Assembly: GCA_048938895.1 (NCBI GenBank)
Contig: JBHLLU010000030.1
Span: forward strand, 1-51,845
Length of the DNA stretch: 51,845 nucleotides
Direction: 5' to 3'
Source of the DNA: Promethearchaeota archaeon
GTDB lineage: Archaea; Asgardarchaeota; Lokiarchaeia; Sigyniarchaeales; SOKP01
The translations under genes were made by a program, and so were the position numbers. Under the pieces are notes generated by a model. That model made no database searches. It had not been told where the DNA came from and saw only the letters and a list, made by a program, of their open reading frames with translations. Within the stretch, counting starts at the first letter, position 1; each line of letters begins with the position of its first letter. Positions 24,929 to 41,749 of the stretch are shown in pieces.

Positions 24929-25032
24929 CGGGCTATAGGGGAATTGAACCCCTGACCTTCCTTTCTATAAGAGACCATCTAATAAATTTCAGGTTAAAAG
25001 CCTGCCGCGCTACCTGCCTGCGCTAATAGCCC
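24929..25032 (-). tRNA. tRNA-Lys(UUU) with a 30-nt non-canonical intron (24958-24987, about position 44/45)
   Basis: Acceptor GGGCTAT/ATAGCCC+G, D stem GCGC/GCGC, anticodon loop CTTTTAA, T arm AGGGG-TTCAATT-CCCCT. Confidence 0.92.
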
Positions 25033-25168
25033 ATACCTATAGTTCTTTGTTTACATTTACAAAAGGTGTATGAAATAAATCAATTATAGTTTAAAAATTT
25101 TATTTTATAGAGTGTCTATCTACTGCTGATTGAATGTTTTGTAAACCAGAATTCTTAATTCAAGCTTA

Positions 25169-26182
25169 TTAATTGAAATGAGCAAAGCCATAACTTTTTA
25201 ATTCAATTTTTTTATTATCTTTCATTACATAGATATATTCTTCAGGTATAACCCTACCTATTTTAATAAGCTTTCCACCTTTTTGTTCAATCTCTTTTTT
25301 TGCCTTAGAAAAATCTTTTTCACTCAATGTAAATAAGTGAATATATTCTTCTCCTCCATTAAAAACAAGATCTTCCAAACGAATGCTAAACTCCTGAGAA
25401 TACTTAATTGCCTCATCATCAATTAAATCTTCATTAAAATCAATTTCAAATCCTATATTTGGATTAGATATCATTAAGTCCAGTAAAGATTTCGATAATC
25501 CATCAGAGGAATCAATACTTGATGTTGCCAACTTTCTTTTGGATAAAATATGTGCTTCTATCCCTGAAACCTCTGGCTCTAAAACACTTTTGATGGATCT
25601 ACTATAATTTAAAAACTGATTAGGGTCTTTTTTATGTAAGAGAATTTCAAAACCGACACCAGTTAATCCGAATTTTTTGTTAATCACTAAAATATCATCA
25701 ACTTTAATTCCTTCTCTTAAAATAATATTTGAAGGCATCTCAAAGCCAAATACTGTAGGATTTATAATAATTTCTTCTGTTTCATTAATATCTCCCCCAA
25801 TAAGTACAAGATTAAATTTTAAAGAACTATCAATTATCCCATTTATAATATCTAAGAAATTGGTTTTTTTAAGTACTTTTGGTAAACCTAAAGATATGAT
25901 GATTCCCCTGGGTTTAACTCCCTTTACTAACAAATCACTAATATTCATAATAACAGATTTCTTACCAATTTGATACGAATTCATCTGTGGTGGTACATCA
26001 GTAGAAGATACAAGCATATCTGAATTTAGAACTAAATTTTCCTTAAACTCACTCTCAGGAAGATCAAAAAAAAAAGCGTCATCTCTAATCAATAATTTTC
26101 CAGTCTTCTCTTTTACCAATTGTTCAATAATTTTTATTAATTTTAATTCTCCTAGGTTTCCTATTTGAGGATTGTCACTCAT
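25169..26182 (-). CDS. thiL: Thiamine-monophosphate kinase (probable ATG at 26182)
   Basis: LGELKLI, DDA, NISDL, IGGDIN, IDSSDGL, GGEEY. Confidence 0.9.
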   Translation of the reverse strand: MSDNPQIGNLGELKLIKIIEQLVKEKTGKLLIRDDAFFFDLPESEFKENLVLNSDMLVSSTDVPPQMNSYQIGKKSVIMNISDLLVKGVKPRGIIISLGLPKVLKKTNFLDIINGIIDSSLKFNLVLIGGDINETEEIIINPTVFGFEMPSNIILREGIKVDDILVINKKFGLTGVGFEILLHKKDPNQFLNYSRSIKSVLEPEVSGIEAHILSKRKLATSSIDSSDGLSKSLLDLMISNPNIGFEIDFNEDLIDDEAIKYSQEFSIRLEDLVFNGGEEYIHLFTLSEKDFSKAKKEIEQKGGKLIKIGRVIPEEYIYVMKDNKKIELKSYGFAHFN

Positions 26183-26250
26183 TAGATAAATTTTATAATT
26201 TTTTAACAATTATTGTTTCTGAATAAACTTATATTTTTAAAAATTACTAT

Positions 26251-26352
26251 GCCTCTGTGGCTTAGTGGTAGAGCTATTGATTCGTAATCAATTGATCACG
26301 TGATTCAAGCGATCAGATGATTCGGTCGGGGGTTCAATTCCCCCCAGAGGCT
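26251..26352 (+). tRNA. tRNA-Thr(CGU) with a 30-nt non-canonical intron (26292-26321, about position 42/43)
   Basis: Acceptor GCCTCTG/CAGAGGC+T, anticodon arm ATTGA-TTCGTAA-TCAAT, T arm GGGGG-TTCAATT-CCCCC. Confidence 0.92.
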
Positions 26353-26356
26353 CTTT

Positions 26357-27370
26357 TTATACATCTTCAGTGAAAACATATTGTTTTATTATTTGAAGGG
26401 CAAGCATGTTAAATGCATCATTTATATTTTCACCTGTTTTTGCTGAAGTTTCTATATAGGAAAGATTTAAAGTTTTAGCTAAACTCTCTCCGGTTTCAGT
26501 GGAAATCACCCTTTCTTCTTCTAAATCTATTTTATTTCCTACTAAAATTAAGGAAATTTTTGGCGATACTTCCATTATCTCATTATACCAATTTTCAACT
26601 TTATCATAAGTATCTTGACGAGTTACATCATATACTAAAATCCCAGCTTCAGCATTTGATAAATATGATTGTCTTACTCGTTTGAATTGGGCCTGTCCTG
26701 CTAGATCCCAAAGTACAAATCTTACTTTTGACTCTAAACCTTCAAAATCACATTCCTTTTTCATAATCGACGTCCCAATTGTAGATTTATAATCGGTTTG
26801 AAATGAATTTTCAACAAAACGATGTACCATACTTGTTTTTCCTACTCCTCCTTCCCCCCCTAAGATTAGTTTATAGGCATATTCTCCCGATTTAATCTTT
26901 ATTTTTTGAAGAGTATCTACTTTTCGTTCAATCTTTTCAACATTTTGTTCTGAAAAAAGTTTAGGAATCACAGGACTTACTGGTCTCCCATCAAAAATTC
27001 GAGCTATTTTTTCAGCTGCTAAATAGGCATATGGAAAAATAGGATCAACCATAGCAATTGACTCTAAAACAGTAACAAAAATCGCTTCAGATCCTGCTTC
27101 GCAAAAAATAATACGATGTTCTTCTGTATCAAATGTTCCTGTTCCAAAAGCACCTGAGCTGAACTCTTCTGTAATTCTGGTTAGAACAGGTTCCACTAAA
27201 GCGCTAACACCACCAATTACATCTTCCTCCACTTCCGTCTCTGATTCTCCTTTTAGAGCAGCCATTACCAATCCCTCTCTATTCACAATTATGGCCGCAA
27301 TCAAATTTATACCCACTTCTTGTCTATACCACTTTAATAATGCCTCTAGTTTATCTCGATCAACTGACAT
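26357..27370 (-). CDS. Roadblock/LC7 domain fused to a Rab-like small GTPase
   Basis: N-terminal AAIIVNREGLVMA roadblock pattern; C-terminal GEGGVGKT, WDLAGQ, NKID, ETSAK. Confidence 0.9.
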   Translation of the reverse strand: MSVDRDKLEALLKWYRQEVGINLIAAIIVNREGLVMAALKGESETEVEEDVIGGVSALVEPVLTRITEEFSSGAFGTGTFDTEEHRIIFCEAGSEAIFVTVLESIAMVDPIFPYAYLAAEKIARIFDGRPVSPVIPKLFSEQNVEKIERKVDTLQKIKIKSGEYAYKLILGGEGGVGKTSMVHRFVENSFQTDYKSTIGTSIMKKECDFEGLESKVRFVLWDLAGQAQFKRVRQSYLSNAEAGILVYDVTRQDTYDKVENWYNEIMEVSPKISLILVGNKIDLEEERVISTETGESLAKTLNLSYIETSAKTGENINDAFNMLALQIIKQYVFTEDV

Positions 27371-27773
27371 GAAATCACAAAGCGTTTTTAAATATAAATT
27401 AACCTAACTACAATTTTATTATTTAATATAATAAGTTTATCTTAAAAAGTTATAGAAAACGATAATCCTTCAGACTTCAAGAATTGATGATTTTATTATA
27501 ATAGAACAATAATCTCTTAGTTTTGTTAATGATATTAAATCGTTAATTTGTTAATTTGGATAATTTCTAAATAGTTTATCTAATTCTTTCTCTTCCGTCA
27601 TTTAGAGGTATTATAATTTCATAATAAGCTCACATAACCTTCTATAATTATATATTTAAACTGATAGAGTAAAGGATTTAAATGATAGTAAAATATTAAA
27701 GTCCTAAAGATTTCAATTTATCAATTAATCTTTCTAAATGAATTATTAGAAGAGAGAAAAAATAAAAAGAAAA

Positions 27774-27953
27774 GCAGGGGTAGCCAAGATTCTAGAATAG
27801 ATCTTCTAGAATTATACTAGAGAATACCTCTAAAATACTAGAATGGGAATTGGTCTACGGCGCTAGACTGAGGCTCTAGTGACATAGGTCTTCGTGGGTT
27901 CGAAAATTGAATATAGATCATATCGATCACCTTAGAAAATCCCACCTCCTGCA
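27774..27953 (+). tRNA. tRNA-Leu(GAG) with a D-loop insert (27789-27849, two nested introns) and a T-loop intron (27905-27939)
   Basis: Acceptor GCAGGGG/CTCCTGC+A, anticodon arm CTAGA-CTGAGGC-TCTAG, long variable arm, T stem GTGGG/CCCAC; removing 61+35 nt leaves an 84-nt class II tRNA. Confidence 0.9.
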
Positions 27954-28066
27954 ATATTTAAGACATTCTTTTGTATTTTCTTGTTATAATATTGAGAAAG
28001 ATCTATAATATCATCTAGTTTGTTTAATAATGATCGAAAAATAAGAAAATTAAAATTACGATATTT

Positions 28067-29269
28067 TTGGTGTTTTTTATTACAAGTGTATTAATAAATA
28101 AAGAATATGAAGCCAAAAAACATGTTGAATCACTGGCTTTTAATAGATCTGCCTCATCTACCGGAGAAACAAAGGCTATTGATTATATTGAAGAAGAATT
28201 AAGAAAAGAGAACATTGATTCTAAACGTGAATATTTTCACTGGACAGGTCCTACAAGAATCTTAATGAGAACCAGTTATTTAATTCTAATCACATATCTC
28301 CTATTATCTCGGTTAATTTTGGTAATAGTAATTTACTTTGTTATAAAACACCTATTTGAAAGAACACGGAAAATGACTTTAATAAAAAAAGAAACATCTA
28401 AAAGTATTTACGCTGAAATACCTGCAAGTAATCAAGAATCAAAAAAACCTCTCATAATTTTTTCTGCTCATTATGATTCAGTTTCAGCAAACATTCCCTT
28501 TCGGTTTCAAGTTATGATGTTTTTGATATATAGAATGATAGTTGCTTTTTATATTCTAATTGTTATTATATTTTCCATCTGGCTTACTCTTGATATTTTT
28601 AGCCTTTTTAGCCTTCCAAGTAATATTATAAATATAATTGCAATAGTCTCTTTATTTGGAATAGTAGTATCACTTCCAATACTATACCTTGTTTTTAATG
28701 AAAAACCCTCTTCATGCTCAATAGATAATGCTAGTGGTGTTGCGATATTAATTGAATTAGCTAAATTTTTCCAGAGAGATCCGTTAGAAAATTTTGATTT
28801 ACTATTTATTTGGCCTGGTGCTGAAGAATGGGGTTTAAAAGGATCCAAGAAATTTTGTGCTCAACATTTTGGTACTTTAAAAGAAAAATATGATCTAAAT
28901 AAATCTATAAATATCAATATAGATATGGTTGGGACTTATATTGGATTGTTAGATAAAGCAGGATTTCCATTAAGAAAAAAGATGAATAAAGATTATAATA
29001 ATCTTATAGAAACCACCGCAAATTCATTAGATATCCCAATTACTAGATATAATAAAATAATAGAACCAAAAAGTGACCATATAATTTTCAGGAGAAAAGC
29101 TAGAAGATTTGGGAAAAAATTTCAAACTATCTTCTTCCACTCAGATAAAGATTCTAAGTATATTCACTCTCTACGAGATACTCCCGATAAAGTTTTGCCT
29201 GAAAACTTAAATGGGTGCGTAGCAATTTGTTACCACGTTTTAAAAGATATCGACAATGGGATAGAGTAA
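28067..29269 (+). CDS. Membrane-embedded M28 family metallopeptidase
   Basis: AHYDS, DNASG, AEEWGL, NIDMVG, SDH, IHSLRD motifs with inserted TM segments. Confidence 0.88.
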   Translation: MVFFITSVLINKEYEAKKHVESLAFNRSASSTGETKAIDYIEEELRKENIDSKREYFHWTGPTRILMRTSYLILITYLLLSRLILVIVIYFVIKHLFERTRKMTLIKKETSKSIYAEIPASNQESKKPLIIFSAHYDSVSANIPFRFQVMMFLIYRMIVAFYILIVIIFSIWLTLDIFSLFSLPSNIINIIAIVSLFGIVVSLPILYLVFNEKPSSCSIDNASGVAILIELAKFFQRDPLENFDLLFIWPGAEEWGLKGSKKFCAQHFGTLKEKYDLNKSININIDMVGTYIGLLDKAGFPLRKKMNKDYNNLIETTANSLDIPITRYNKIIEPKSDHIIFRRKARRFGKKFQTIFFHSDKDSKYIHSLRDTPDKVLPENLNGCVAICYHVLKDIDNGIE

Positions 29270-29270
29270 T

Positions 29271-32200
29271 CTAGAAAAAATCTCCTAATTTATATTGCTT
29301 AATTTTGGGATTATTGGTTAAACTCTCTACATATTCTTCAATTAACTCCATCCTTTGAATTGTATATTCGTTAAGTCTAAAATCTTCGCATAGTTTTAAA
29401 GCTCTTGAGATATATTTTTCAATCCCACCGCGATTTACAGTTAAAATTATTTTATTTCCACATTTAGGGCATTTCCCCGAATTAGAAAGTGGAGGTCTTC
29501 TGTACTTTGAGTTACATTTTACGCACCTAAATGTCTGTATACTAAACTTTCTTAAATTACCTAAAATATCTGGATTGAAATGGGTGGAGAGTATTTTTTC
29601 TGCAACTTTTTTTGCATCAACCGCTCTAATCAACTTAGCTAAATGTAACTGAGCATCTATTTTCTCATCCATAGATTCATATAACTTATATGCCGTAGTT
29701 TTAGGCCCTTCATTAATATCCCTGGTGGGAATGTTAAATCCAATATTTTCGTATTGATCTGCAGTACCTAAACGATTGTTTACTAGATTCATGATATCTT
29801 CAATTTCTGATGGAGATTTATATTGTTCTGTGGCTAAATAAAATTCTAATGGGTATCGAAATGCTGTATCAACATTGTGTGCCTCTGGTTCAATTTCATT
29901 CGGATCTAAAAGAGTGCTTATTACTAAAGTCGCATCCATCCTCCCACCTATTTTATTTGGTAAATAATGTCTTGAAAAATTTAATAAAGGATCCAATAGT
30001 AACATAATACCATCTTCATCACCATCACAATTCCGTCTTTTTGAACTATGCCAGAATGGATGAGCATAGATAGACCTAGCAGGAGAAAATCCAATTATCC
30101 TTCCTATTATTCCTGCACTTGTATGTGGTGCCAAACCAACTACAAGATGGCCTATTAAGTCTTTTGGCTCATCAAAATTATAAAAAGGACTCATCTTATA
30201 AAAATATTCTAACTCATCATCTAAGAATTTGGCAACCTTAACAAAATATTGCCCACAATCTTCTGAAAGAATAACATCTTGCACCTTTATTTCAATTATT
30301 TGATCATCATACCGTAAAGGCTCACCTTTATAATCATGAGAATATCCTAATTCTTTAAGGATTTTGATAGAACTTCCAATTTCTCCTGGTTTAAAGTGTG
30401 TTATCGGGATATCAGTTGCATCGTATCTGATTTCAGCAGTTTTATAAACAAGTACATTATTTTTTGCTCTTAAAATTCCTTTCTCTAATGGTTCAGGAAC
30501 TTTAAATTGATTAGTCAAGCCATAAATACCCTTTAATTTCTTTGGTAAAGGAATCTGTAACGAGTGTAAAATTAAATTCATATGATTCTTAATATTAAAA
30601 ATTGCTTCGCTAGAGGCTACTAGCCTTCCATTACATTGAGGACATTTCTCTTCATTTTTCGGTTCACTAGGAGGATAAATCTTTTTACATTTTTCACAAA
30701 TCGAACCTAGTTCAGTATGAGTGGCGCATTTAGGACATATATTAAAGATACTTATCGTCCCGCAATTTGGACATTTCTTTCTGCATACATCTATCTTTAT
30801 TTTTTGCAGGTCAAGTGCTTTTTCTACCGTCCGTGAGCTTCCGACTTTATCACTTAAAGGAAATAGTGCATGAACACCCTTCATGCTTTTTCTCTCAGAT
30901 TTTTCTGGTCTACCCATGCGAGATCCTATGAAATGGGGTGCTTTATTTTTAATATGTATTGAGGAAATTTTAAAAAAGTAGGTAAAAATATCATCTTCTT
31001 TTTCAAATTTTATTTCTTTTTTTCCTTCAAGATTGAATATTTCAATATAAACAAGATTCCTACTCTTGCGGAATAAAATTTTGTTATCTCTTACCTTATG
31101 AACAATGAATGCCTTTTCAAGTATTTTTTTAATGCTTTCCTCATAATTTAAAACAATTTTCTTTTCTGTTGAAGAATAACCATTCAAAAAAGCCTTTCTC
31201 AAAGTAGAGAGTTCTTCAGGTGAAAGGTTCCCCCAAAAGTCTGTAAAAAAAGGGTGTAAAGGAATATTATACTCTTTAGATATCTGAATTGCCTCCTCCG
31301 CAGTTGGTTTAGATTTAAAAGGATTTTCAATTAATTCATGTAGTCTAGATTCAATCCTTCCTTCTTCTTTTAGAGCTTTCTTTAAATCTAATACCCACCA
31401 TTCTTCTACATATCCGGATGGTATCAATTTATGATTATTTTCAGTAAATTCACCAAATCCGAAAAGTATATCTCCTAAGAAAAGAACTTCTTCTATCTCA
31501 GGAAATACCTTTTTCGCCATTTTATATGAAATAACTCTGATTACATTACCATTTTTCAATTTTACAATAGGAGGTTCAATAGAACTAACAGGACAAACAC
31601 TTGTGCTCTTGCCAGGTCTCTCAATTCTTAGTTGTGTGCCAATTGCCACAAAATCATCCAAAATACCCATCGTAGCAGGATGCATGCCTCCAGCTGCTAA
31701 TCCCGTATTCCTAGAACGTCCATATCTTATCCTATGACCTCCAATTTCTGAAGGATGGCTAAACACAGGTCTCCCTGCGATAATATCAGCAACATATTTA
31801 AAATTTGGTGCAATATAGGATTTTTCGTCCGTCTTTTTATTATCCATATCTATTAATTCCTCCTTGGATGCTTCTTTCTGTGCTATTTTTTTCAGTTCAG
31901 CAAGCCAATCCCATCCTTCTAACTTCATAGATTTCGCAATTTTTAACAATTTGGGGGCTTTCAATAAGATACCATCGTTTAATACAAGACACGCTCCACC
32001 CCTAATATTATTTGTCTCAATTCTGGGTAAATCTCTAAAAGCAGATACTTCCTCAACTTCAGTTGAATCACCATTAATTTCAATTGGTAAATTTTTTACA
32101 GCGTACCTTATCTCACGGTTAGAAGATGGGTATTGTAAATGAACATTTCTGTCATAAAGCTTTACTTCTTCTACATATCTTCCTATTTCTGCTTCTGTAG

Positions 32201-32741: not shown

Positions 32742-32953
32742 AAATTTATTTTTAAATCCTAAGGATTATTTAATAGATATTATTATACATATCTCCTAAC
32801 ATAAATTAAAGTCATTTATTAATCAGCTATTTCATTTATAAAGGAGACGACAATGCTAATTTATAACACCCCTTTGAAATATAAAGATATGATGTTTTTC
32901 CTTTAATAAAAAATGATTTAATTTTGTTATGCACTATTTAATTAAATTCAATC

Positions 32954-34750
32954 TTGGAATGGGGAACTGTGAAAACTGAAAAAACTGATGTGAAAAAGAC
33001 CGTCATAAAGAAATTAGTTAATTCTGGGATTAATATTACTCCATCTCTCTTAGATTTTGTGTTAGAACTTGAAGATCCTTTAAATAAAATAAATTTAATA
33101 ATAAAGGATACAAGTTTTATTCCAAGTTTTAGAAGTCACCTAACTGAAGACATATTAAAAAAAACTTCTAACGAAGAAATAAAGAAAATATTGAAAAGGA
33201 AAATTGTTAAGGCAGAAGTTGGCTCCAAGGAAGACGACATAGAAATGATACTTAATTTAGATAGCTCTAGAAAAAAAACTTTAGAATCTACTAATTCTGT
33301 TCCATTGAAAAGTGATAGATCTCCACCCATAAGTATTGAAACTAGAAATTCCGAGATATTTACTCTTTTAAGGCAAAATGATAATAATGAATTGTCTAAA
33401 GGGGATGTGGTCAGGAATTCTAAAATAGAACTAGTAGAGGGCGCTAAATCCTCACTTACTTTCACCCCAATAGCAAAGGATTATAGTTCAAAATATGAAA
33501 TTCTTAAAGACCCTACTGGCAAGTTATATACAACTGGAGAATATAAGGATTTTTATGATCTCACATTAGATAAATTCAATAGACTGAGAACTCTAATGAG
33601 AAAAAGAACAGAAGTTCACAATGCTGATAACATTAACAATATTTTACGACTATCCAGTAGAGTAGAAGTATCTCTAATTGGCCTTGTAAATGAAATAAGA
33701 ATAACAAAAAATGGATTTTACCTAATAACTTTAGAAGATCTTACTGGTCTAATCAATGTAATCATTAGAAAAGATACAGAAAATCAAGATAATGTGAAAA
33801 TAGCCGAAAGGACCCTCAATGATCAAATGCTTTACATAGAAGGAACCTATAATCCTGGAGATAAGGGAAAATCTGGTGTTATCTATGGTAATTATATTTC
33901 AAAAATTGATATTCCACGAGATTTTGAGCCTAATAAATCTAGTGATCCGTTATCAATAGTATTGACGTCTGATACACATATTGGGAGTAAAGAATTTGAA
34001 GCTAAATTATGGAAGAGATTCATAGAATTTCTAAATGGAAAAATAGGAAATAAAGCTCAAAGAGATAGAGCGGGTAGAATTAAATATTTGGTAATCAACG
34101 GGGATTTAATTGATGGAATTGGGGTGTATCCCGCACAAGAAAACGATCTACTTATCTCCAATATATATGAACAATTTCACAAAGCAGCAGAATTCCTTAC
34201 AGAAATACCAGATTATATTAAGATCTTTTATAGTTCAGGAAACCACGAACCTGTAAGAAATGCTATTCCGAGACCAGCCGTACCGAAAAAATATTCAAAA
34301 GAACTTATTGATATCGGTGTAAAATGTATTGGTAATCCCTCTATTATTAAAACGCATGATGTAAATACTCTAATTTTTCATGGAGATAGTATTCTCGACT
34401 TGAATATGTTAATTCCCGGAATGGAACATACTAAATCCGCTGAAACTATGAAAGAATTCTTGAAATGTAGACATTTAGCTCCAGTTTATGGAAAAAAGAC
34501 TCAGATTGCTCCCACACAAAAGGATTGGTTAATAATTGATAAAATTCCAGATATTTTCCATACCGGACACATCCACATTAATGATATGGATACTTATAAT
34601 AACGTTATTTTAGTTAACTCAGGATGCTTTCAAAGTCAAACAGAATTTATGAATTCATTGGGGATCCACCCCACACCAGGAATTATATCCATTGTAGATT
34701 TAGATACTCTGAGAGGTACGCAATTAGACTTAAAAAGCAAAATACTTTAA
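32954..34750 (+). CDS. polB: DNA polymerase D small subunit DP1 (3'-5' exonuclease)
   Basis: OB fold LEDLTG; phosphoesterase motifs SDTHIGS, GDLIDGIGVYP, GNHE, HGDS, RHLAP, GHIH. Confidence 0.96.
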   Translation: MEWGTVKTEKTDVKKTVIKKLVNSGINITPSLLDFVLELEDPLNKINLIIKDTSFIPSFRSHLTEDILKKTSNEEIKKILKRKIVKAEVGSKEDDIEMILNLDSSRKKTLESTNSVPLKSDRSPPISIETRNSEIFTLLRQNDNNELSKGDVVRNSKIELVEGAKSSLTFTPIAKDYSSKYEILKDPTGKLYTTGEYKDFYDLTLDKFNRLRTLMRKRTEVHNADNINNILRLSSRVEVSLIGLVNEIRITKNGFYLITLEDLTGLINVIIRKDTENQDNVKIAERTLNDQMLYIEGTYNPGDKGKSGVIYGNYISKIDIPRDFEPNKSSDPLSIVLTSDTHIGSKEFEAKLWKRFIEFLNGKIGNKAQRDRAGRIKYLVINGDLIDGIGVYPAQENDLLISNIYEQFHKAAEFLTEIPDYIKIFYSSGNHEPVRNAIPRPAVPKKYSKELIDIGVKCIGNPSIIKTHDVNTLIFHGDSILDLNMLIPGMEHTKSAETMKEFLKCRHLAPVYGKKTQIAPTQKDWLIIDKIPDIFHTGHIHINDMDTYNNVILVNSGCFQSQTEFMNSLGIHPTPGIISIVDLDTLRGTQLDLKSKIL

Positions 34751-34786
34751 ATCAATTTAATAATATATAAAAGATAATAATATACT

Positions 34787-35470
34787 ATGAATTTAGCAAT
34801 TCCTCGTGGAAGTAATAAAGAGTTACTATTGTATATTTGGAAAATTATAGATTTACCTAACATTGAATTGAAGGATCTACTATTTAGAATTTCTTTTGAA
34901 CTATTTTTATTCCCTCCTGATCAAGGAAAAAAGTTTATTGATAATTGTTTTAAGGATAAACTATTGTATGAAGATGAAAATGCGAGTCTGAACTTATCTA
35001 CTTCTCTAAATGAAAGATTGGCACAATGGCAAAAAGGAAGAAAAAGGGAAATATTAAATAATATAAAGTCAGCAACTAACAATATTCATCTCAGAATGCA
35101 TATTGAAAATGATAATAAATCAAGTTTTAGTGTTTTCTTAAAATCATTTGCAGATAAAGGTACTCTAAATAGAGCAGTAAATATATTAGATAACGCATTT
35201 GAATTAAAAGACATAGATGATGGAAAAAGTGTTTTGTTTTCTTCAGTTAAAGGTTCTAAGGAAGATTCCTATTATATTGAATTTAATTTAAAAAATAAAT
35301 TGTTAAAACACAATTGTCATGATTTTATCACAAGAAAGAGTAAACAAAAACAATTTTGTAAGCATTTGGTAAAATATTTCTTATTATTAAAGGAAAGATT
35401 CCCAGCATCCACAGAAACTCTTATAAAGGAATTAGAAGAAAATATTGATAAATGGGAATTTAGTTCCTAA
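34787..35470 (+). CDS. Hypothetical protein with C-terminal SWIM-type zinc finger
   Basis: HNCHDF...FCKHL preceded by VKGS...YYIEF strands. Confidence 0.75.
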   Translation: MNLAIPRGSNKELLLYIWKIIDLPNIELKDLLFRISFELFLFPPDQGKKFIDNCFKDKLLYEDENASLNLSTSLNERLAQWQKGRKREILNNIKSATNNIHLRMHIENDNKSSFSVFLKSFADKGTLNRAVNILDNAFELKDIDDGKSVLFSSVKGSKEDSYYIEFNLKNKLLKHNCHDFITRKSKQKQFCKHLVKYFLLLKERFPASTETLIKELEENIDKWEFSS

Positions 35471-36774
35471 ATAAGCTTTTTAAAGATATTATTTTTCAAT
35501 TTAACCTTATCAGTTTGTAATAATATAGGTTTATGATTTATAATTCCCTGAAACTTATCAATCTCACACAGAGCTTTTTCAATTATATCTACACCAATAT
35601 CAAATTTAATTATTTTTGTTCTCCCGTAGTGTCCCATTGATTTAACTTCTGCAATAATTATACCTGCTAATGCTAATTCATTTATATAATCACTAATCCT
35701 ACGTTTTGTTAATTGACGAACTCCTGGAATTAACGATCTTATTTCAGAATGAACATCATAGATATCTCCTGAAATAATTATGTGATCAGGGTTAAATTTT
35801 GAAATTAAATAGATTGAAGTTAAAATCAGTTGAGCTTGAAGTGGTAAACCTTTTATATATTCCATGACATAATCTTTTTCTATATCTTCTTGCGCTTTTT
35901 CAACATATTTTGAGGTTACAAATTTACTCTGTGCTCTTTCGGCTAACTCTCCTGCCTTTCTTAATAATTGTAATGCTTTTCTAGCATCTCCATGTTCTTT
36001 TGCGGCTATTGCAGCACATAAAGGAATAACATCTTCCTTTAGGACATCTTCATGAAATGTAATCTTAACTCTCTCATTTAAGATATCTCTAAGTTCACTT
36101 GCATCATATGAAGGAAAAACAATATGTTCTTCTCCTAAACTAGATAAAATTCTTGGATCTAAGCTATCTCTAAACTTCAATTTGTTTGAGATGCCGATTA
36201 TGCTAGTCTTACAATTATCTAAATTTTCATTTAACCGAGTTAAATCATATAATATTTCATTTCCCCCTTTTTTATCTACTAAGATATCTATTTCATCTAA
36301 TACGAGAAAACATATCGATTTCCTTACTTTAGAATCAAGAAGACCAAGCAATTTTTTAAATATTATATCTTTAGGAAGCCCCGTTGGGGGAATTTTTTCT
36401 TCCCTTGAAATCGTATTATATATATGTGCTAAAATACGATATGGTGTGGAGACAATGTTACAATTGATATATATCCACCATGGTTTAATCTCTGAACTCT
36501 GTTGTGCTAATTTTTGACTTACGTATCTAATCGTAGCTGTTTTTCCGGTTCCAGTTTGACCATAACATAAAAAACTTGGGGGTGCATCTCCTAACAATGC
36601 GCATGCTGTTTTCTCGGCTATATCCTTTATCTGAACATCTCGGTGAGGCAGGTTTTCGGGAATATAAGATGGTTCTAACGAATTACGATTGTTGAATATT
36701 TTAGGGCCCTTAAGATAGTTCTTATAAAATCTATCGATATTAAATTGATAATTATTGTCGTGATTTTTCAACAA
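35467..36774 (-). CDS. cdc6: Orc1/Cdc6 replication initiator
   Basis: LPHRD, GQTGTGKT, VLDEID, LDPRILSSL, GDARKAL, C-terminal winged helix with GRT. Confidence 0.96.
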   Translation of the reverse strand: MLKNHDNNYQFNIDRFYKNYLKGPKIFNNRNSLEPSYIPENLPHRDVQIKDIAEKTACALLGDAPPSFLCYGQTGTGKTATIRYVSQKLAQQSSEIKPWWIYINCNIVSTPYRILAHIYNTISREEKIPPTGLPKDIIFKKLLGLLDSKVRKSICFLVLDEIDILVDKKGGNEILYDLTRLNENLDNCKTSIIGISNKLKFRDSLDPRILSSLGEEHIVFPSYDASELRDILNERVKITFHEDVLKEDVIPLCAAIAAKEHGDARKALQLLRKAGELAERAQSKFVTSKYVEKAQEDIEKDYVMEYIKGLPLQAQLILTSIYLISKFNPDHIIISGDIYDVHSEIRSLIPGVRQLTKRRISDYINELALAGIIIAEVKSMGHYGRTKIIKFDIGVDIIEKALCEIDKFQGIINHKPILLQTDKVKLKNNIFKKLI

Positions 36775-36795
36775 TTATAACACCGTTAGTCATTT

Positions 36796-36808
36796 TTCCA
36801 CTCGAAAT
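36796..36808 (+). promoter_or_regulatory. Candidate ORB/mini-ORB element upstream of cdc6
   Basis: TTCCACTCGAAAT resembles the archaeal ORB core TTCCAxTGGAAA; it lies 21 bp upstream of cdc6 beside a very AT-rich spacer. Confidence 0.4.
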
Positions 36809-37082
36809 ATTGTATTATACAGTATTTCTACTGCATTTATAAACTTAATTATTAATCTTGAAATTAATTGAAAGATGTTAAAGCTTTAATATTTAATTTT
36901 GAATAATCTTTTTAATTAGTTATATATTTATTGTCGGTACTTTAAAAGAATATTATTTATGAAGCAATACCTATTAAGATCTAGTTAATAAAAAGTGCTT
37001 AATAAAAATTTAATTTAAATAATAATTTGGTTAATTAGTTAATTATATATTGAAGTCGTACACCATAGGTTAGTAAAAAATT

Positions 37083-37853
37083 TTGACATCAAAGGATAAT
37101 ATAGAAGAAAGAGAAAAGAGAAATAAGAGGATAGCTTTTATTTTAGCTTTATTTTTCACTTTTTTAATCCTTATAAACTTTTTAACTATCTCTGTTTTTT
37201 TTTCATGGGCAGATTGGGTTAGTCTTTTAATATTTTCATTATTATTAATTGTACCTGCTTACTTTTCTAATGCATCAATGGTAATAACAGGTGGAGGGCG
37301 TCCTATCGATGGTGGTAAGGTTCTTAAAGATGGTAGAAGATTATTGGGGGACCATAAAACTGTAAATGGATTAAAAGGACCTTTGTATGTTGGTATTCCT
37401 CTTTCATTTTTGCTATTTCTGCTATTTATAGTCCTTTGGGAACCGATAAAAGAAACAATTGTACAAGCGTTAAACCAAGGGCAGTATTTATTATATAATA
37501 ATATTGACGTCTTTAGATATTATTTTATTGGGGGTCAAATTCCCATAAATTTCTTAGTTTTAATTATTAGAATTGTACTTGCCTCTTATGGGGCGGTACT
37601 AGGAGATTTAGTAGGTTCTTGTTTAAAAAGGCGTTTTGATATAAAGAGCGGCGCTCCCTTTTGGATTGTTGATCAGTTAGATTTTGCTTTATTTGCAATT
37701 TTATTTATCACAATTCCAGGATTCATTTCACCTACAATATTTTATTTACCTGATATTCATATATTCATTTTTTTAATGATAATAACCCCGGCAGTAAGTA
37801 TTATTGCTAATACTATTGCTTATTTAGTAGGGTTAAAGTCTGTCCCATACTAA
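37083..37853 (+). CDS. carS: CDP-archaeol synthase
   Basis: PAYFSNA, PIDGGK..DGRRLLGDHKT, GDLVGSCLKRR, DQLDF. Confidence 0.93.
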   Translation: MTSKDNIEEREKRNKRIAFILALFFTFLILINFLTISVFFSWADWVSLLIFSLLLIVPAYFSNASMVITGGGRPIDGGKVLKDGRRLLGDHKTVNGLKGPLYVGIPLSFLLFLLFIVLWEPIKETIVQALNQGQYLLYNNIDVFRYYFIGGQIPINFLVLIIRIVLASYGAVLGDLVGSCLKRRFDIKSGAPFWIVDQLDFALFAILFITIPGFISPTIFYLPDIHIFIFLMIITPAVSIIANTIAYLVGLKSVPY

Positions 37854-37858
37854 AAAAT

Positions 37859-38359
37859 TTAAGTTAAGACTTTACATTTTATTTCTAATGGTGTTAATTT
37901 ATTTTCAAGAACAATATATTTTTGACATAATTCATTTAGTGTCTTAATATAATCTCCTCGTCTCCCTATTGCTATTCCTCTATCCCTGTAATTCAAAAAG
38001 TATAAGGATATCTCTCTTTCTCCAGATTCATCACTTTCTATTAAAAATTGATGAATGTATAAATCTGGAAAGAAACTTACAAGCAAATTAATGAAAACAT
38101 TATCGGTTCTTATTATTAATACTTTTTTAGGTGCGATTTCTCTTCGCATAGAGTCTAAATAAATTTTTGATGAAAAATATCTATCTTTTTTTACAAAAAA
38201 GAAGATAAAATTGTTTATTACTGCAATAAATTCTGGAAATATTCCTTTAGTTTTGTTATAAAAGTAATGGCCTAACTTAAGCTCAAAATTAGAATATTTT
38301 CTTACAAATGATAACATTTGATAGAAATATAGGTCATCAATTATTGTATAGAAACCCAT
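37859..38359 (-). CDS. Divergent NusA-like KH-domain protein
   Basis: RGIAIGRRGDYIK KH GxxG loop in the second half, as in archaeal NusA; first KH degenerate. Confidence 0.65.
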   Translation of the reverse strand: MGFYTIIDDLYFYQMLSFVRKYSNFELKLGHYFYNKTKGIFPEFIAVINNFIFFFVKKDRYFSSKIYLDSMRREIAPKKVLIIRTDNVFINLLVSFFPDLYIHQFLIESDESGEREISLYFLNYRDRGIAIGRRGDYIKTLNELCQKYIVLENKLTPLEIKCKVLT

Positions 38360-38478
38360 GTAAAAATTTCTTAAAGGAAAAATTTAAAGTACTAAGAAAT
38401 TCATATAATTTGATGTGATTTTTTAATATTTAACTTGGTTAGATTTGATTAGATTAAACCTAAAATGGATTAATAAGA

Positions 38479-38916
38479 ATGAAAGATGCCGGATTTGAAT
38501 TTAAGGATCACACTGCTGATGTAAGTGTTAAATGTTGGGGTAAAACTCTAGAGGATGCTATTTCTCAATGTGCATTAAGTCTAATGACAACCCTTACGCC
38601 TAATTTAAGCAAAATTGAGCCAAAAATCGAGAAGCAGCTAGAGGTTACAGCGGAAGATAAATATGCATTATGTTTTGATTTTTTATCAGAATTTCTTTAC
38701 TTATTTGATGTAGATGATTTAGTTTTTAATGAAATCACAGTAGAATCAATCGTTAAAATGGAACATAAATTTAAATTAAAGGCAAAACTGAGAGGAGAAA
38801 AATTTGATAAAAATAAACATGAAATTGGCACAGAGGTAAAAGCGATTACTTATTCATTTATGAATATTGAAGAAAAAAAGAATAGAGTTGAAATTAATAT
38901 TGTGTTTGATATCTAA
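38479..38916 (+). CDS. Archease (RtcB cofactor)
   Basis: DHTADV, EVKAITY, C-terminal VFDI. Confidence 0.96.
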   Translation: MKDAGFEFKDHTADVSVKCWGKTLEDAISQCALSLMTTLTPNLSKIEPKIEKQLEVTAEDKYALCFDFLSEFLYLFDVDDLVFNEITVESIVKMEHKFKLKAKLRGEKFDKNKHEIGTEVKAITYSFMNIEEKKNRVEINIVFDI

Positions 38917-38931
38917 TCATTCAAGTTATTC

Positions 38932-40422
38932 TTACCCCTTAACAACTCCTACTGGTACAAGTCTTACAACCTTTTCAACAATATCCAGATCATGACTCAC
39001 TTGAACCACTTGATCTATATCTTTGTAGGCTCCGGGACTTTCTTCGGCTAGCACTTTCATAGAGGCACTTTTTACTAAAATACCTTTCTTTCCTAAATCT
39101 TCTTGAATTTTAGTTCCCCAGTATCTTTTGACTGCTTTTGATCTAGACATAACTCTACCCGAACCGTGAGCAGTTGATCCAAAAGATAACTCCATGGCTC
39201 TTGGTTTACCAACGCATAAGTAAGAGGCTGACCCCATAGTTCCAGGAATTAAGGCAGGTTGACCAATGTCTTTATAATCTTGAGGTAAAACTGGGTGATT
39301 TGGAGGAAATGCTCTAGTTGCTCCCTTTCTATGCACATTTAATTTCATCCTTTTTCCATTTACTTCATGCTCTTCTATCTTGAGAATGTTATGGCAAACA
39401 CCATATATCATATGTAAATCCAACTCATCTAAATCTTTCTTAAATGCATTTTGAAAGGATTCTCTTAACCAATGTGTTATTAATTGACGATTTGTAAATC
39501 CAAAATTAGCAGCACAAGCCATTTGTTGTAAATAATTCTGTGCTTCAAGAGTATCCGCAGGTACACAAGCTAGTTCTCTATCAGGCACTTTAATCTTATA
39601 TTTTTTCATTGCTTGTTCTATTTTTCGCAAACTATCTGTACAAACTTGATGTCCTAATGCTCTACTCCCTGTATGAATCATTATAGTGATTTGATTCTTT
39701 TCAGTTATTCCTAATTTCTTAGCAATTGGGGTATTATAAATTTGATCTACTTTCTGAATCTCAAGAAAATGGTTTCCGCTTCCTAATGATCCAAGCTGTT
39801 TAATTGCTCTCTGTTTTGCTTTCTGTGACACCAAACTTGCATCTGCATTCTTCAAACATCCACGTTCTTCTAAGTGTTTAAGATCTTCGTCAATGGCATA
39901 ACCATTTTCTAACGCCCAATTGACCCCATTATTTAGTACTCTATCTAAATCTGAATAGCTTATATTTAGTTTACCTTTAGAACCTAATCCGGAAGGGATA
40001 TTATTAAATATTTTATCTAATAAATTTGGGAGTACATTTTTAAGATCGTTAAGAGATAGATTTGATCTTAATAAACGTACACCACAATTAATATCGTACC
40101 CTACGCCTCCTGGAGATATCATTCCAGTCTCAGCATCTGTCCCAGCAACCCCACCAATACAAAAACCATATCCTTGGTGGGCATCTGCTAATGCGATTGC
40201 ATGTTTTTGAATTCCTGGAAGGCATGCTACATTTGCGATTTGATCTAATGTCCGATCCTGTTTTATTTTTTCTAAGATATAATTATTGGCATAGATCTTG
40301 ACAGGGACTCGCATCTGGAATTTTTCTATATTTCCTTGAATACGCGTCATCAAAGTTTTAGGAGATATCTCATAGATATTCTCCTCAACTTTATTCACAT
40401 TCATACTGCAATTATAAGTCAA
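38932..40422 (-). CDS. rtcB: tRNA-splicing ligase RtcB (start possibly ATG 40404)
   Basis: DAHQGYGFCIG, GVGYDINCG, GSGNHFLE, HTGSR, HRKGATR, HGSGR, EESPGAYK; no intein. Confidence 0.98.
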   Translation of the reverse strand: MTYNCSMNVNKVEENIYEISPKTLMTRIQGNIEKFQMRVPVKIYANNYILEKIKQDRTLDQIANVACLPGIQKHAIALADAHQGYGFCIGGVAGTDAETGMISPGGVGYDINCGVRLLRSNLSLNDLKNVLPNLLDKIFNNIPSGLGSKGKLNISYSDLDRVLNNGVNWALENGYAIDEDLKHLEERGCLKNADASLVSQKAKQRAIKQLGSLGSGNHFLEIQKVDQIYNTPIAKKLGITEKNQITIMIHTGSRALGHQVCTDSLRKIEQAMKKYKIKVPDRELACVPADTLEAQNYLQQMACAANFGFTNRQLITHWLRESFQNAFKKDLDELDLHMIYGVCHNILKIEEHEVNGKRMKLNVHRKGATRAFPPNHPVLPQDYKDIGQPALIPGTMGSASYLCVGKPRAMELSFGSTAHGSGRVMSRSKAVKRYWGTKIQEDLGKKGILVKSASMKVLAEESPGAYKDIDQVVQVSHDLDIVEKVVRLVPVGVVKG

Positions 40423-40584
40423 ACAGATTTCAAAAATATTTCCATTTATATTTAATAAATTGATAGTTTTATATTGAATCGTAATATTCGATAATTTTTG
40501 AATTTAGCCAATAAAAATATAATCCGAAATTACTTTAAATTAAGTTATCGTAGATAACTAATATAGAAGGATTGGTTTTCTCTT

Positions 40585-40947
40585 ATGGTTTTATTAAATC
40601 TATATGATTACCAGATACCACAACAAATTCTTGGTTTACTCATATTTCTTGGTATCCCCTTAATGATCATTTTAGAAGTATATTTTGAAAAAATACGGAA
40701 AATATACCATGTGAAAACAATATTTGGGGTTTTATCAATCCTATTAGGTTCAATTATTGTCATTATAGCCATTTGGGGTAATATCGGATGGAAACCAGAA
40801 TATATACAACCTGTTTTAGGACCCCATTATAGCGATTATCGCTTTACTTTTTATGTAAGCATAATAATTGCTGTAGGATTAATCATATATGGAATGCTTT
40901 TAATTCATAAAGCAGTATTAGTGAAGAAAAGAGTTAAATACTTTTAA
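40585..40947 (+). CDS. Hypothetical membrane protein (about 3 TM)
   Basis: 120-aa ORF with three hydrophobic segments. Confidence 0.7.
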   Translation: MVLLNLYDYQIPQQILGLLIFLGIPLMIILEVYFEKIRKIYHVKTIFGVLSILLGSIIVIIAIWGNIGWKPEYIQPVLGPHYSDYRFTFYVSIIIAVGLIIYGMLLIHKAVLVKKRVKYF

Positions 40948-40963
40948 AAAATATTAATCGAAA

Positions 40964-41749
40964 TTATTTGATTTCGACAAAGGAAAGAAGCTCTAACTTA
41001 TCCAAGTTATTCATTATCTTCTGAATTTCTGATTCTGGGCGACCAGATTCTTCAGCAATGTCAGCAATCGTATGAAATCCGTCAGCTAAATGTGCAATCT
41101 CAAATTCTTCTTCATCCAATACTCCCTGTGCAACGACTTGTTTTGGTAAACGTTTACTAGTCCATTCTGGTTTGACGTCCTTCACTTCACGTAAGTCTTC
41201 CTCTGATAAGATTAATCCTTTCTTGGCAATTTGCTTCTGGGATTTAAGGAAATCTTTTTTAAAAATTTTCAAAATGGGAATCTTTAATTGGATCTCGGCA
41301 ACCTTACCACTCTTTAATATCTCATCTATTACACTCTCAAAATCTCGGAAAATCCTTACATCTCCAGACCAACCGTCAAGTTGATCACCAAATTTTCCTA
41401 CAAACTTATCAATTATATCAGTTAACGCTTTATGAGTAATTTTAGCATCATCATTTTTATCAGCGGCAGCAGTACATAAAACACCCTCCTTAAAGACTAA
41501 TAACAGGTAAAAAACCTGCATGTCTTTACTAATAGATAGAATCTATCTATAACCTATAACTTTAAGTTCCCCACTTCCCTTAGAGAACTCAACACTAAAG
41601 TCTTTAAGTGCTGTGAGAAAACCGCTGACTAAATCCTGATTAAATTCAATCCTCCCATACTTTCTGTGGATTAAACAAATACCCGTTCATAACCAATGGA
41701 GAACTCCCGTTGATTTATATTGGTGTATCAAGTAAAAATTATGTAAAAT
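40964..41749 (-). CDS. Longin-domain + winged-helix protein, three exons (41749-41716, 41685-41554, 41523-40964), 241 aa after splicing; ATT start
   Basis: Spliced N-terminus (I/M)LHNFYLIHQYTGICLIHRKYGRIEFNQDLVSGFLTALKDFSVEFSKGSGELKVIDMQVFYL is a longin pattern, in frame with the 185-aa ORF; SD-like GAGGTGA 9 nt before the ATT. Confidence 0.85.
41524..41553 (-). other. Predicted BHB intron 2 of the longin gene (30 nt, contains in-frame TAG)
   Basis: G-TTAT-AG^G-TTATAGATAG-ATT-CTATCTATTA-GTAA-AG^A-C: 4-bp central helix, two 3-nt bulges, 8-bp perfect inner stem. Confidence 0.85.
41686..41715 (-). other. Predicted BHB intron 1 of the longin gene (30 nt, contains in-frame TGA)
   Basis: CC-AATA-TA^A-ATCAA...TTGGT-TATG-AA^C-GG: central helix 3 bp + A.G, inner stem ATCAA/TTGGT, outer pairs CC/GG and ATAC/GTAT. 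Confidence 0.78.

Follow-up and report, generated by a model that had tools for sequence, protein, structure and literature searches.

The 51,845-nt stretch of Promethearchaeota DNA analysed here (the window) raises the question of whether the short inserts in three of its tRNA genes and in one of its protein-coding genes are introns of a single kind, and whether a message can be spliced as a tRNA is. We consider it probable, at roughly 80%, that the tRNA and mRNA inserts are alike minimal, self-contained bulge-helix-bulge (BHB) introns that would be cut by the endonuclease EndA and joined by the RNA ligase RtcB. The seven inserts of the original prediction, with lengths of 30, 30, 29, 32, 35, 30 and 30 nt, all exist.

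Without intron handling, ARAGORN called no tRNA anywhere in the window. Rfam found two, each interrupted on the 3′ side of its anticodon stem by an insert of about 30 nt:

24929..25032, minus strand: tRNA-Lys(UUU) gene, 104 nt including its intron (RF00005, 54.9 bits)
24958..24987, minus strand: Lys intron, 30 nt, between tRNA positions 44 and 45
26251..26352, plus strand: tRNA-Thr(CGU) gene, 102 nt including its intron (61.3 bits)
26292..26321, plus strand: Thr intron, 30 nt, between positions 42 and 43, on the 3′ strand of the anticodon stem

Excision in silico yielded ARAGORN calls of tRNA-Lys(ttt) and tRNA-Thr(cgt); the unspliced genes yielded none. The Lys motif is a relaxed BHB with a central helix of 3 bp and a G.A mismatch, and the Thr central helix has 3 bp and an A.G mismatch. 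A further gene, tRNA-Leu(GAG), was overlooked by Rfam as well as ARAGORN and was first read by eye from the sequence:

27774..27953, plus strand: tRNA-Leu(GAG) gene, 180 nt, with three introns (ARAGORN call after three excisions)
27789..27811, plus strand: first 23 of the 29 nt of Leu intron A, in the D-loop
27812..27843, plus strand: Leu intron B, 32 nt, strict hBHBh′ motif with 4/4 central pairs and a 4-bp outer helix
27844..27849, plus strand: last 6 nt of Leu intron A, resuming after intron B
27905..27939, plus strand: Leu intron C, 35 nt, in the T-loop (59/60), of hBH type

Intron B is thus nested within intron A, whose BHB (3 bp and a G.G in the central helix, 8 bp in the inner helix) is predicted to form on the B-spliced RNA. 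For intron C the T-stem provides the outer helix; 3 bp plus G.A make up the central one. With all three removed in silico, ARAGORN calls tRNA-Leu(gag). All five tRNA introns lie away from position 37/38, as originally proposed.

The remaining two inserts, each of 30 nt, interrupt a gene for a protein with a longin domain and a winged helix (longin-wHTH). It forms a single reading frame interrupted by TGA and TAG, and in alignment both inserts are missing from 241-aa homologues:

40964..41749, minus strand: longin-wHTH gene, three exons making 241 codons plus stop, first codon ATT
41716..41749, minus strand: exon 1, 34 nt, by alignment with intron-free homologues
41686..41715, minus strand: mRNA intron 1 (site A), 30 nt, containing TGA
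41554..41685, minus strand: exon 2, 132 nt, by the same alignment
41524..41553, minus strand: mRNA intron 2 (site B), 30 nt, containing TAG and TAA
40964..41523, minus strand: exon 3, 560 nt with stop; on its own a 185-aa ORF to gene callers

Intron 2 lies where it had been placed, at 41553..41524, but intron 1 occupies 41715..41686, 25 nt upstream of the 41690..41661 first suggested. The outer and inner helices of the intron 1 BHB measure 2 and 5 bp, and its central helix has 3 bp and an A.G mismatch; the BHB of intron 2 has 4/4 central pairs and a long inner helix. Since a 450-nt contig from a second sample of the study to which the probable source run belongs spans both inserts with four differences and no gaps, the inserts are real DNA. 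The AF2 model of an intron-free homologue (P0002, 92% identical, pLDDT 93.3) has the beta-beta-alpha-beta-beta-beta-alpha order of a longin fold, and its top Foldseek matches are small and medium subunits of AP-3, AP-1 and AP-2, TRAPP, Mon1-Ccz1 and Sec22b (TM-score on target 0.59–0.71). The cut-off of Pfam Longin (PF13774) was reached neither by the window ORF (E 0.14) nor by P0002 (no match), and in ten distant relatives this profile gave E 0.003–0.007 in two, with all scores below 26.2 bits; Pfam winged-helix matches of the protein likewise fall below cut-off.

All seven inserts fit one geometry, in which two 3-nt bulges lie on opposite strands, 4 bp apart, and the cut falls after the second bulge nucleotide. 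The central helix has 4/4 pairs in Leu intron B and longin intron 2 and 3/4 in the other five, and is therefore relaxed rather than strict; the purine-purine mismatch that had been noted at the end of this helix is present in those five (Thr A.G, Lys G.A, Leu-A G.G, Leu-C G.A, longin-1 A.G). The inner stem reported for six is in register in six, Leu intron C having only an out-of-register hairpin. The inserts are AT-rich, as described, relative to tRNA exons but not relative to the window (intron GC 0.23–0.40, window GC about 0.30). A two-subunit EndA would cut in both 3-nt bulges flanking the helix of about 4 bp, and the exons would then be joined by RtcB with the assistance of archease. The 5′ exon would supply just four central-helix nucleotides and two bulge nucleotides, and the 30 nt of the intron would comprise one nucleotide completing the first bulge, a hairpin some 23 nt long, four nucleotides complementary to the exon tetranucleotide and two nucleotides of the second bulge. 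The primary longin-wHTH transcript could not yield the 241-aa protein, and two excisions would restore the frame.

We compared 81 Lokiarchaeial homologues of the longin-wHTH gene, of which 15 bear inserts (the window included) and 66 have none at the sites A, A′ or B. The three sites are occupied in 14, 5 and 4 genes by inserts of 29–37 nt, most of exactly 30 nt, which bring stop codons or a frame shift, with lengths of 29, 31, 34 and 37 nt among them. Excision of the aligned inserts leaves a frame without internal stop in 14 of the 15 bearers; in the exception (L061, site A′), where the excision boundary is not fixed, the alignment-based cut leaves a stop. At site B (14 genomes), 90.4% of the BHB positions are paired, compared with 37–52% when the partner is slid; all four central pairs are kept in 14/14, and 7 of 15 pairs have changed on both sides, against 0–2 in the slid controls and a value of 7 in 1 of 500 shuffles. 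Site A (five genomes) is similar, with 86.7% paired versus 40–45% and both-side changes in 7 of 15 pairs, central-helix exon-intron pairs among them. The covariation of the Lys intron across 18 genomes of the genus is weaker (80.3% paired, two pairs changed on both sides, a score no better than that of the +1 slide); its inner helix is 90.7% paired and its central helix just 56.9%, and two of the four central pairs form in 13 of the 18 orthologues.

Selection acts on the exons as well. Codons 2–56, in the upstream exons, show a pN/pS of 0.071 at a pS of 0.73 (78 pairs, 13 bearers), and purifying selection on exon 3 of the bearers is weaker (0.188). Where synonymous exon positions contribute to the exon side of the motif, they are fixed in bearers only: codon 54 has T at its third position in 14/14 bearers versus 14/66 non-bearers, and codon 55 is ATA in 14/14 versus 19/66, counts in which kin are not independent. 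Homologues, covariation and exon selection together back the earlier claim that introns of this kind occur in mRNA.

Two readings would do without splicing. The gene could be split or truncated by palindromic DNA insertions, with a working protein of 185 aa starting at Met57 and exons 1 and 2 either dead or encoding a separate peptide. A 185-aa product from exon 3 alone is possible: intron 2 ends 2 nt ahead of the conserved ATG57, the 185-aa ORF stands in the ORF listing, and 17 among the 120 database homologues listed are annotated at this length. As an account of the inserts we nevertheless regard it as very improbable, given that selection in bearers is stronger on the supposedly dispensable exons than on exon 3, that all residues lost would come from strands one to four and the first helix of a confident longin model, and that an exon 1 of 11 codons is implausible as a peptide. 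Moreover, the frame is recovered exactly when inserts of 29, 30, 31, 34 and 37 nt are removed at the BHB cut sites, and covariation preserves the cut-site geometry.

The same covariation bears on translational recoding, by which ribosomes would either bypass the inserts in the manner of phage T4 gene 60 or read through the stops of an unprocessed RNA. A hairpin and nearby stop codons are features of the gene 60 bypass element, and every insert here has a hairpin with stop codons close to its start. However, the covarying pairs are the BHB pairs, exon-intron ones included, and the same type of element sits in the window's tRNAs, where translation has no role. Site B also has no matching take-off and landing codons (ATA precedes the insert, AAA the resuming GAC), and inserts of 29, 31, 34 and 37 nt are beyond read-through; recoding is the least credible explanation that we considered. 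EndA/RtcB splicing is very likely because the inserts carry stops or frame shifts and form covarying BHB folds between exons under purifying selection. We infer the cutting and joining, with EndA and RtcB as agents, from this anatomy, homology, covariation and exon selection and from the enzymes that the genome encodes.

A PF01974 profile search of the genome returned two EndA paralogues of about 200 aa each. Among solved structures, the alpha paralogue is best matched by that of the alpha subunit from A. pernix (3p1z_B, E 7e-35); the aligned His is retained, and a KPR motif aligns with residues 44–46, giving K and R at K44 and R46. In the second paralogue, closest by sequence to the homotetramer subunit 1a79 (E 2e-22), a Ser aligns with the M. 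jannaschii His that we take to be the catalytic His of EndA. By these alignments the genome's EndA is predicted to be of (alpha-beta)2 type with a broad-specificity loop and a beta-like second subunit lacking the catalytic His, which agrees with the relaxed-specificity endonuclease originally proposed. The loop Lys and Arg of A. pernix (K44, R46) broaden EndA specificity (PMC3241643). The two paralogues thus resemble (alpha-beta)2 EndA with the Crenarchaea-specific loop (L1) (PMC3241643, PMC5829648), the latter having already reported the (alpha-beta)2 type for Asgard archaea. Unlike in crenarchaeal EndA, the beta-like subunit is nearest to the M. jannaschii homotetramer subunit, and both assembly and substrate range are predictions. 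The genome has one match to PF01139, a single RtcB ligase gene, and it adjoins the longin-wHTH gene:

38932..40422, minus strand: rtcB, directly downstream of the longin-wHTH gene on the same strand (Pfam RtcB, E 6.7e-170)
38479..38916, plus strand: archease gene, tail to tail with rtcB (Pfam Archease, E 2.6e-42)

RtcB is activated by archease. Downstream of the homologous gene, rtcB is found at 64 of 81 loci, with no association between this adjacency and introns (11/15 bearers, 53/66 non-bearers).

The near-constant size of the inserts could reflect no rule at all, only the shared descent of a few orthologous introns and selective noticing. Orthology reduces the 18 Lys introns at 44/45 to a single intron, and the 14 introns at site B to another; Asgard tRNA inserts overall have a median of 22–23 nt according to a preprint (bioRxiv 10.64898/2026.10.13.758758), and in two Ser tRNAs of the genome introns of 15 and 19 nt apparently occupy 37/38. 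This explanation appears unlikely, in that sizes stay narrow when counted by site: 30 and 30 nt for Lys, 29, 32 and 35 nt for Leu, about 30, 29–30, 31, 31 and 18 nt at five Thr sites, and 30–31, 29–30 and 29–37 nt at the CDS sites A, B and A′. The genome has 26 tRNA candidates whose T-arm is intact; 15 of them measure 98–111 nt, with none longer and none of 85–97 nt.

The idea of ongoing intron gain fared differently in tRNAs and in the mRNA. In a comparison within one genus, which covered the window and 19 relatives (20 genomes), the inserts of the syntenic tRNA-Thr lie at five different positions, that of the window being occupied in 4/20 and the remainder having inserts elsewhere, and tRNA-Lys has a 30-nt intron at either of two positions; such turnover is in keeping with the proposal. 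The site-B intron, by contrast, is homologous even between genes that diverged deeply, and its distribution on the gene tree is patchy, with 12 changes, at least 8 of them forced by well-supported branches of a tree built on 720 columns with saturated synonymous sites. It looks more like an old intron, precisely lost many times, than like ongoing gain. A spread from tRNAs into mRNAs finds no support: the seven introns, compared with each other and with the whole genome, had best non-self matches of 13 nt (E about 1), and without shared sequence neither source nor direction of spread is readable. Two genome-wide screens of little power for further CDS introns gave no excess over controls. The original observation is in part confirmed and its interpretation in part supported.

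Watanabe is said to have described a BHB intron in cbf5 pre-mRNA in 2002. Such an intron occurs in Desulfurococcales and Sulfolobales (PMC2738675), and that paper describes much that recurs here: a short tRNA-type intron in an archaeal protein-coding gene that gene callers mis-annotate, a patchy distribution (put down to lineage-specific loss for cbf5) and a heterotetrameric EndA in the hosts, where we predict an (alpha-beta)2 type. The present host differs in belonging to the Lokiarchaeia (Asgard) rather than the Crenarchaeota, and the gene in adjoining rtcB, in having two introns and three insertion sites in its family, and in a size nearly fixed at 30 nt. Splicing of cbf5 was shown on RNA, whereas the longin-wHTH introns are known from DNA alone.

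Non-canonical and multiple tRNA introns are found in Thermoproteales. The Asgard preprint describes tRNA genes interrupted at D-arm, variable-loop and T-loop positions with BHB-forming boundaries, overlooked by standard tools and with recurrent gains on the tree (10.64898/2026.10.13.758758). The D-arm, variable-loop and T-loop interruptions found here share these boundaries and are likewise missed by standard tools, and recurrent gain is common to both; the preprint finds the heaviest loads in Jordiarchaeia and Atabeyarchaeia, and the median insert it gives, 22–23 nt, contrasts with a mode of 30 nt here. Its main text never uses the term mRNA, and its supplements may hold Lokiarchaeial data (10.64898/2026.10.13.758758). 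For Asgard archaea, both the heavy interruption of tRNA genes and an EndA of this type have already been published. Our literature search found no paper on mRNA introns in Asgard archaea.

The mRNA of HAC1/XBP1 is spliced unconventionally in eukaryotes, IRE1 cutting paired stem-loops. The longin-wHTH message would resemble it as the mRNA of a probable DNA-binding protein in need of non-spliceosomal cutting and RtcB-type ligation, but the putative cutter is EndA acting on a BHB rather than IRE1, and nothing in the present data points to regulation; 66 of 81 homologues have no insert at site A, A′ or B. Production of the protein very probably requires that this message first be cut and rejoined. 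With so little demanded of the exon, the module would fit many tRNA positions and, equally, coding sequence.

The longin-wHTH gene (41749..40964, minus strand) forms a single frame interrupted by TGA and TAG. A search with its 185-aa open reading frame returned 413 relatives at E ≤ 0.001 from 577 candidates, and the listing of 120 homologues includes 55 of 241 aa and 17 of 185 aa. The 241-aa homologues are uninterrupted at both spots where the window's gene has a 30-base surplus. Introns were delimited by alignment with these homologues and by a scripted fit to bulge-helix-bulge (BHB) geometry (4-base central helix, 3-nt bulge per strand, cut after the second bulge base), which placed two of them:

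41715..41686, minus strand, longin-wHTH intron 1 (site A)
41553..41524, minus strand, longin-wHTH intron 2 (site B)

The original prediction of introns in this gene thus described something real and had the second intron exactly right but misplaced the first, at 41690..41661; homologues are contiguous there, and the 30 nt they lack lie 25 nt upstream. A loose BHB scan of four regions was discarded for excess noise. The first codon of the gene (41747-41749, minus strand) is often unusual, being ATT (I) in the window and T (ACG), L, V or M elsewhere. Most genes shown have GAGGTG or GGAGGT 5′ of it, at a distance of a few to some ten bases, and residues 3-8 are invariant. The pattern suggests translation from near-cognate start codons.

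Both sites recur in other Lokiarchaeia. Among 81 genes (the window's and its counterparts from 80 species-level genomes), 14 have an insert at site B, of 30 nt in 13 and 29 nt in one, and five have one at site A, of 30 nt in four and 31 nt in one. At a third site, A′, located 6 nt 3′ of A, four of the 81 genes have unrelated inserts of 29, 33, 34 and 37 nt; A and A′ are two separate gains 6 nt apart. All three sites are phase 1 when read from the cut sites, and 15 of the 81 genes bear an insert at one or more of them; L007, L009 and L011 are examples of intron-bearing relatives. Excision of the aligned inserts leaves no internal stop in frame in 14 of these 15 bearers; in the remaining one (locus L061) alignment-based excision at A′ retains a stop, and the A′ boundary there is uncertain. 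Surplus stretches of 22 nt near the gene start of L078 (~1339) and of 56 nt in L079 (~1346) may be further insertion sites or start-codon alignment artefacts.

A gene tree of 80 spliced coding sequences requires 12 changes at site B, at least eight of which are forced by well-supported branches, and the clustering of site B is not above that of shuffled labels (122/500). The 14 site-B introns share a mean column identity of 85%, and their distribution tracks local clades. The window's gene falls in a well-supported clade of 11 rows, in which four genes have both introns and seven have neither; the five genes nearest to the window's, L001 first, are intron-free. Among 36 matched congeneric genomes, which probably overlap the 80-genome set, site B is occupied in three and site A in two, as judged by match length. 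We read the site-B intron as old and precisely lost many times, often along with its neighbour, with transfer between relatives as a possible alternative to repeated loss.

Several comparative signals bear on whether the inserts are removed from the mRNA. Across codons 2-56 of the site-B bearers, pN/pS is 0.071 at a pS of 0.73 (78 pairs, 13 genes, without L061), a value below those of exon 3 (0.188) and of insert-free genes (0.167). Over 14 sequences, 90.4% of the site-B motif is paired, compared with 37-52% on sliding of the 3′ partner; its four central pairs are kept in 14/14, and seven of 15 pairs vary on both sides. At site A (five sequences) the motif is 86.7% paired and seven pairs vary on both sides, two of these joining an exon base with an intron base. 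At site B, the synonymous positions that build the motif's exon half are fixed in bearers alone, at 14/14 bearers against 14/66 non-bearers and 14/14 against 19/66, a contrast that Fisher values overstate since kin are non-independent. Were the inserts left unspliced, the product would be a truncated 185-aa protein; this is very unlikely, being at odds with the selection on exons 1 and 2 and costing half of the longin fold. Ribosomal bypass or read-through across the inserts is hardly credible, as the insert lengths are incompatible with it and bypass would lack a landing codon. Splicing, for which the comparative evidence is strong, is the default reading of the longin-wHTH inserts, and the predicted mechanism is the known one, that of the tRNA-splicing enzymes.

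Both inserts are covered by a DNA contig from another sample of the study to which the probable source run belongs, so that an assembly artefact is ruled out. DNA contigs of the same samples include the insert-bearing allele together with insert-free relatives, and the two kinds therefore coexist side by side. In the relatives' contigs from runs X1, X3, X4 and X5, exon 3 joins exon 2 without the 30-nt insert. These contigs have loose ends at 41524; the positions noted were 41524 and 41614.

The longin label itself holds for the fold, as judged from models, and not for the Pfam family. Pfam gave Longin at E 0.14 and a winged helix at the C-terminus below threshold only. An AF2 model of the intron-free homologue P0002, built on an alignment of 80 diverse relatives, reached pLDDT 93.3 (a first model from 25 near-identical homologues was unusable at 42.1), and Foldseek groups the N-terminal domain with longin domains of AP complexes, TRAPP, Mon1-Ccz1 and Sec22b. 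Of the 640 relatives obtained by profile search, most share the first 125-135 residues alone; in three of ten scanned, the domain is fused with a Ras-type GTPase or TIR domain. Homologues are almost exclusively from Promethearchaeota (= Lokiarchaeia), and a Protein Atlas search returned Asgard clusters without a name and nothing else. The tRNA genes for Thr and Leu flank a gene for a 337-aa protein (26357-27370, minus strand) with a Ras-family GTPase domain at 167-328 and no assignment for its N-terminal ~160 residues. Its layout equals that of P0157, a 336-aa relative in the longin-domain family, and it may thus be a longin-GTPase fusion.

The tRNA genes of the window are interrupted by introns of similar size. 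The window's contig (C5) belongs to a 4.65-Mb genome of 174 contigs with a GC content of about 0.30. ARAGORN reported zero tRNAs on the window as it stands, and Rfam found tRNA-Thr(CGU) and tRNA-Lys(UUU), each with ~30 surplus bases on the 3′ side of the anticodon stem; a tRNA-Leu gene was overlooked by both. The features are as follows, the Thr and Lys introns being placed by the BHB fit:

26292..26321, plus strand, Thr intron at tRNA positions 42/43
24987..24958, minus strand, Lys intron at tRNA positions 44/45
27774..27953, plus strand, tRNA-Leu(GAG) gene
27812..27843, plus strand, Leu inner intron, 32 nt, strict motif
27789..27811 plus 27844..27849, plus strand, Leu outer intron, 29 nt, enclosing the 32-nt intron
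27905..27939, plus strand, Leu T-loop intron, 35 nt

The outer BHB motif of tRNA-Leu forms only with the inner 32-nt intron already removed, which implies a splicing order of inner before outer. Once the inserts are excised in silico, ARAGORN calls the Thr, Lys and Leu tRNAs (3/3). Two details of the original prediction agree with the BHB fit: none of the window's tRNA introns sits at 37/38, and a single purine-purine mismatch at one end of the central helix occurs in five of the seven window motifs. The nested Leu D-loop pair (27789-27849) is common to the congeneric genomes L088, L090, L098 and L101, and seems to be present in the partly masked L102; in others the D-arm is intact or holds a different intron.

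This tRNA region is syntenic within the genus, and the window was compared with 19 relatives. The tRNA-Lys gene is 104 nt long in all 20 genomes, of which 18 have the 30-nt insert at 44/45 and two have it in the T-loop; the Lys motif in relatives is very relaxed, its central helix being 56.9% paired. Inserts in tRNA-Thr occupy five places across the 20 genomes. Three genomes have 31 nt in the D-arm, and two of these three have a further 31 nt in the T-loop. In 11 genomes the insert measures 29-30 nt and lies at about 28/29, in four it measures 30 nt and lies at 42/43, and in two the anticodon loop holds 18 nt altogether.

In L101 and L102, tRNA-Lys is without the variable-loop intron and has a 30-nt T-loop intron instead, and tRNA-Thr has a 31-nt T-loop intron as well; these T-loop introns may be related to each other.

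Genome-wide, Rfam gave 26 tRNA matches, 16 of which ARAGORN called unaltered and insert-free; the other ten comprise nine of 99-108 nt and one partial match. A T-arm and acceptor-stem finder yielded 26 candidates, 15 of 98-111 nt and none of 85-97 nt. An ARAGORN deletion scan of 18 insert-bearing tRNA genes gave best-fitting excisions mostly of 28-33 nt, plus introns of 15 and 19 nt at 37/38 in two Ser tRNAs, lengths that are good only to ~2 nt because ARAGORN accepts too many variants. The tRNA set was recovered incompletely, so that more genes with several introns, as in Leu, probably remain hidden. Two intron-free tRNA-Ala(GGC) genes are present (C113:80815-80886 and C63:1558-1629 of the window's genome, G000); the genome is rated 7.49% contaminated, and one of the two may belong to another organism.

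The idea that this intron class spread from tRNAs into mRNAs found no echo in the intron sequences: BLAST of the seven introns all-vs-all and against the genome revealed no shared sequence, with 13-nt chance matches as the best. As for further CDS introns, two genome-wide screens, both of low power, gave no usable excess over their controls. The first, requiring BHB geometry and at least 60 open codons on either side, gave 6625 matches against 6538 in a wrong-stagger control (143 against 119 at a stricter setting for 28-33 nt), and is blind to introns near gene starts, so that both longin introns would escape it. The second, requiring a paralogue to span the predicted junction, gave 48 real against 47 control loci; none of its six best 29-31-nt candidates was convincing by eye.

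The candidate enzymes are encoded in the same genome. The splicing endonuclease EndA (PF01974) is represented by two genes. One, on contig C83, is nearest to the catalytic alpha subunit of A. pernix and keeps the specificity-loop Lys and Arg, residues reported to widen specificity (PMC3241643); the other, beta-like and on contig C123, has Ser at the position of the His in the M. jannaschii enzyme. By sequence, the genome's EndA belongs to the (alpha-beta)2 class with L1 loop, as previously reported in Asgard archaea (PMC5829648), and these two paralogues with conserved L1 loop residues fit the relaxed-specificity endonuclease that had been proposed. The ligase gene lies in the window:

38932..40422, rtcB, the genome's sole RtcB gene, 541 nt downstream of the longin-wHTH gene

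An archease gene adjoins rtcB. Of the 81 loci, 64 have rtcB downstream of the homologous gene (11/15 bearers, 53/66 others). The intervening gap is 541 nt in the window and about 100-190 nt in the loci listed. It holds a 120-aa open reading frame (40585-40947, plus strand) with no Pfam match, for which the other 80 loci have no counterpart.

Heavy interruption, under-detection and repeated gains have been described for Asgard tRNA genes (preprint October 2026, 10.64898/2026.10.13.758758), and BHB introns in archaeal mRNA have been published for cbf5 (PMC2738675). In our literature search, cbf5 was the one gene for which pre-mRNA splicing by tRNA-splicing enzymes is established in archaea, and papers on BHB introns in Asgard protein genes were not found. 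Compared with cbf5, longin-wHTH is a second, unrelated host gene, from an Asgard lineage and with two introns. What is new is the presence of two introns in one gene, of three sites in the family and of one tRNA intron nested in another, together with the adjacency to rtcB.

For annotation, the consequence is that longin-wHTH is called as a 185-aa fragment in the window, as are 17 of the 120 homologues listed, and that three tRNAs of the window are missed or mis-sized. With regard to intron origin, a 30-nt module borrowing just four exon nucleotides can reside anywhere in a transcript; with regard to dynamics, the inserts of one gene occupy three sites and have been lost precisely many times. 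The adjacency of longin-wHTH to rtcB means that its mRNA splicing may be linked to control of the splicing machinery. That the protein regulates or partners rtcB while its own mRNA is an EndA/RtcB substrate, in a feedback loop sensing the tRNA-splicing machinery, is a rather unlikely, speculative reading. If it were true, full-length protein would be made only at sufficient RNA-ligation capacity in intron-bearing lineages, the system would be an archaeal equivalent of HAC1/XBP1 splicing, in the prokaryotes most closely related to eukaryotes, and three separate intron sites in one short gene would reflect selection, not accident.
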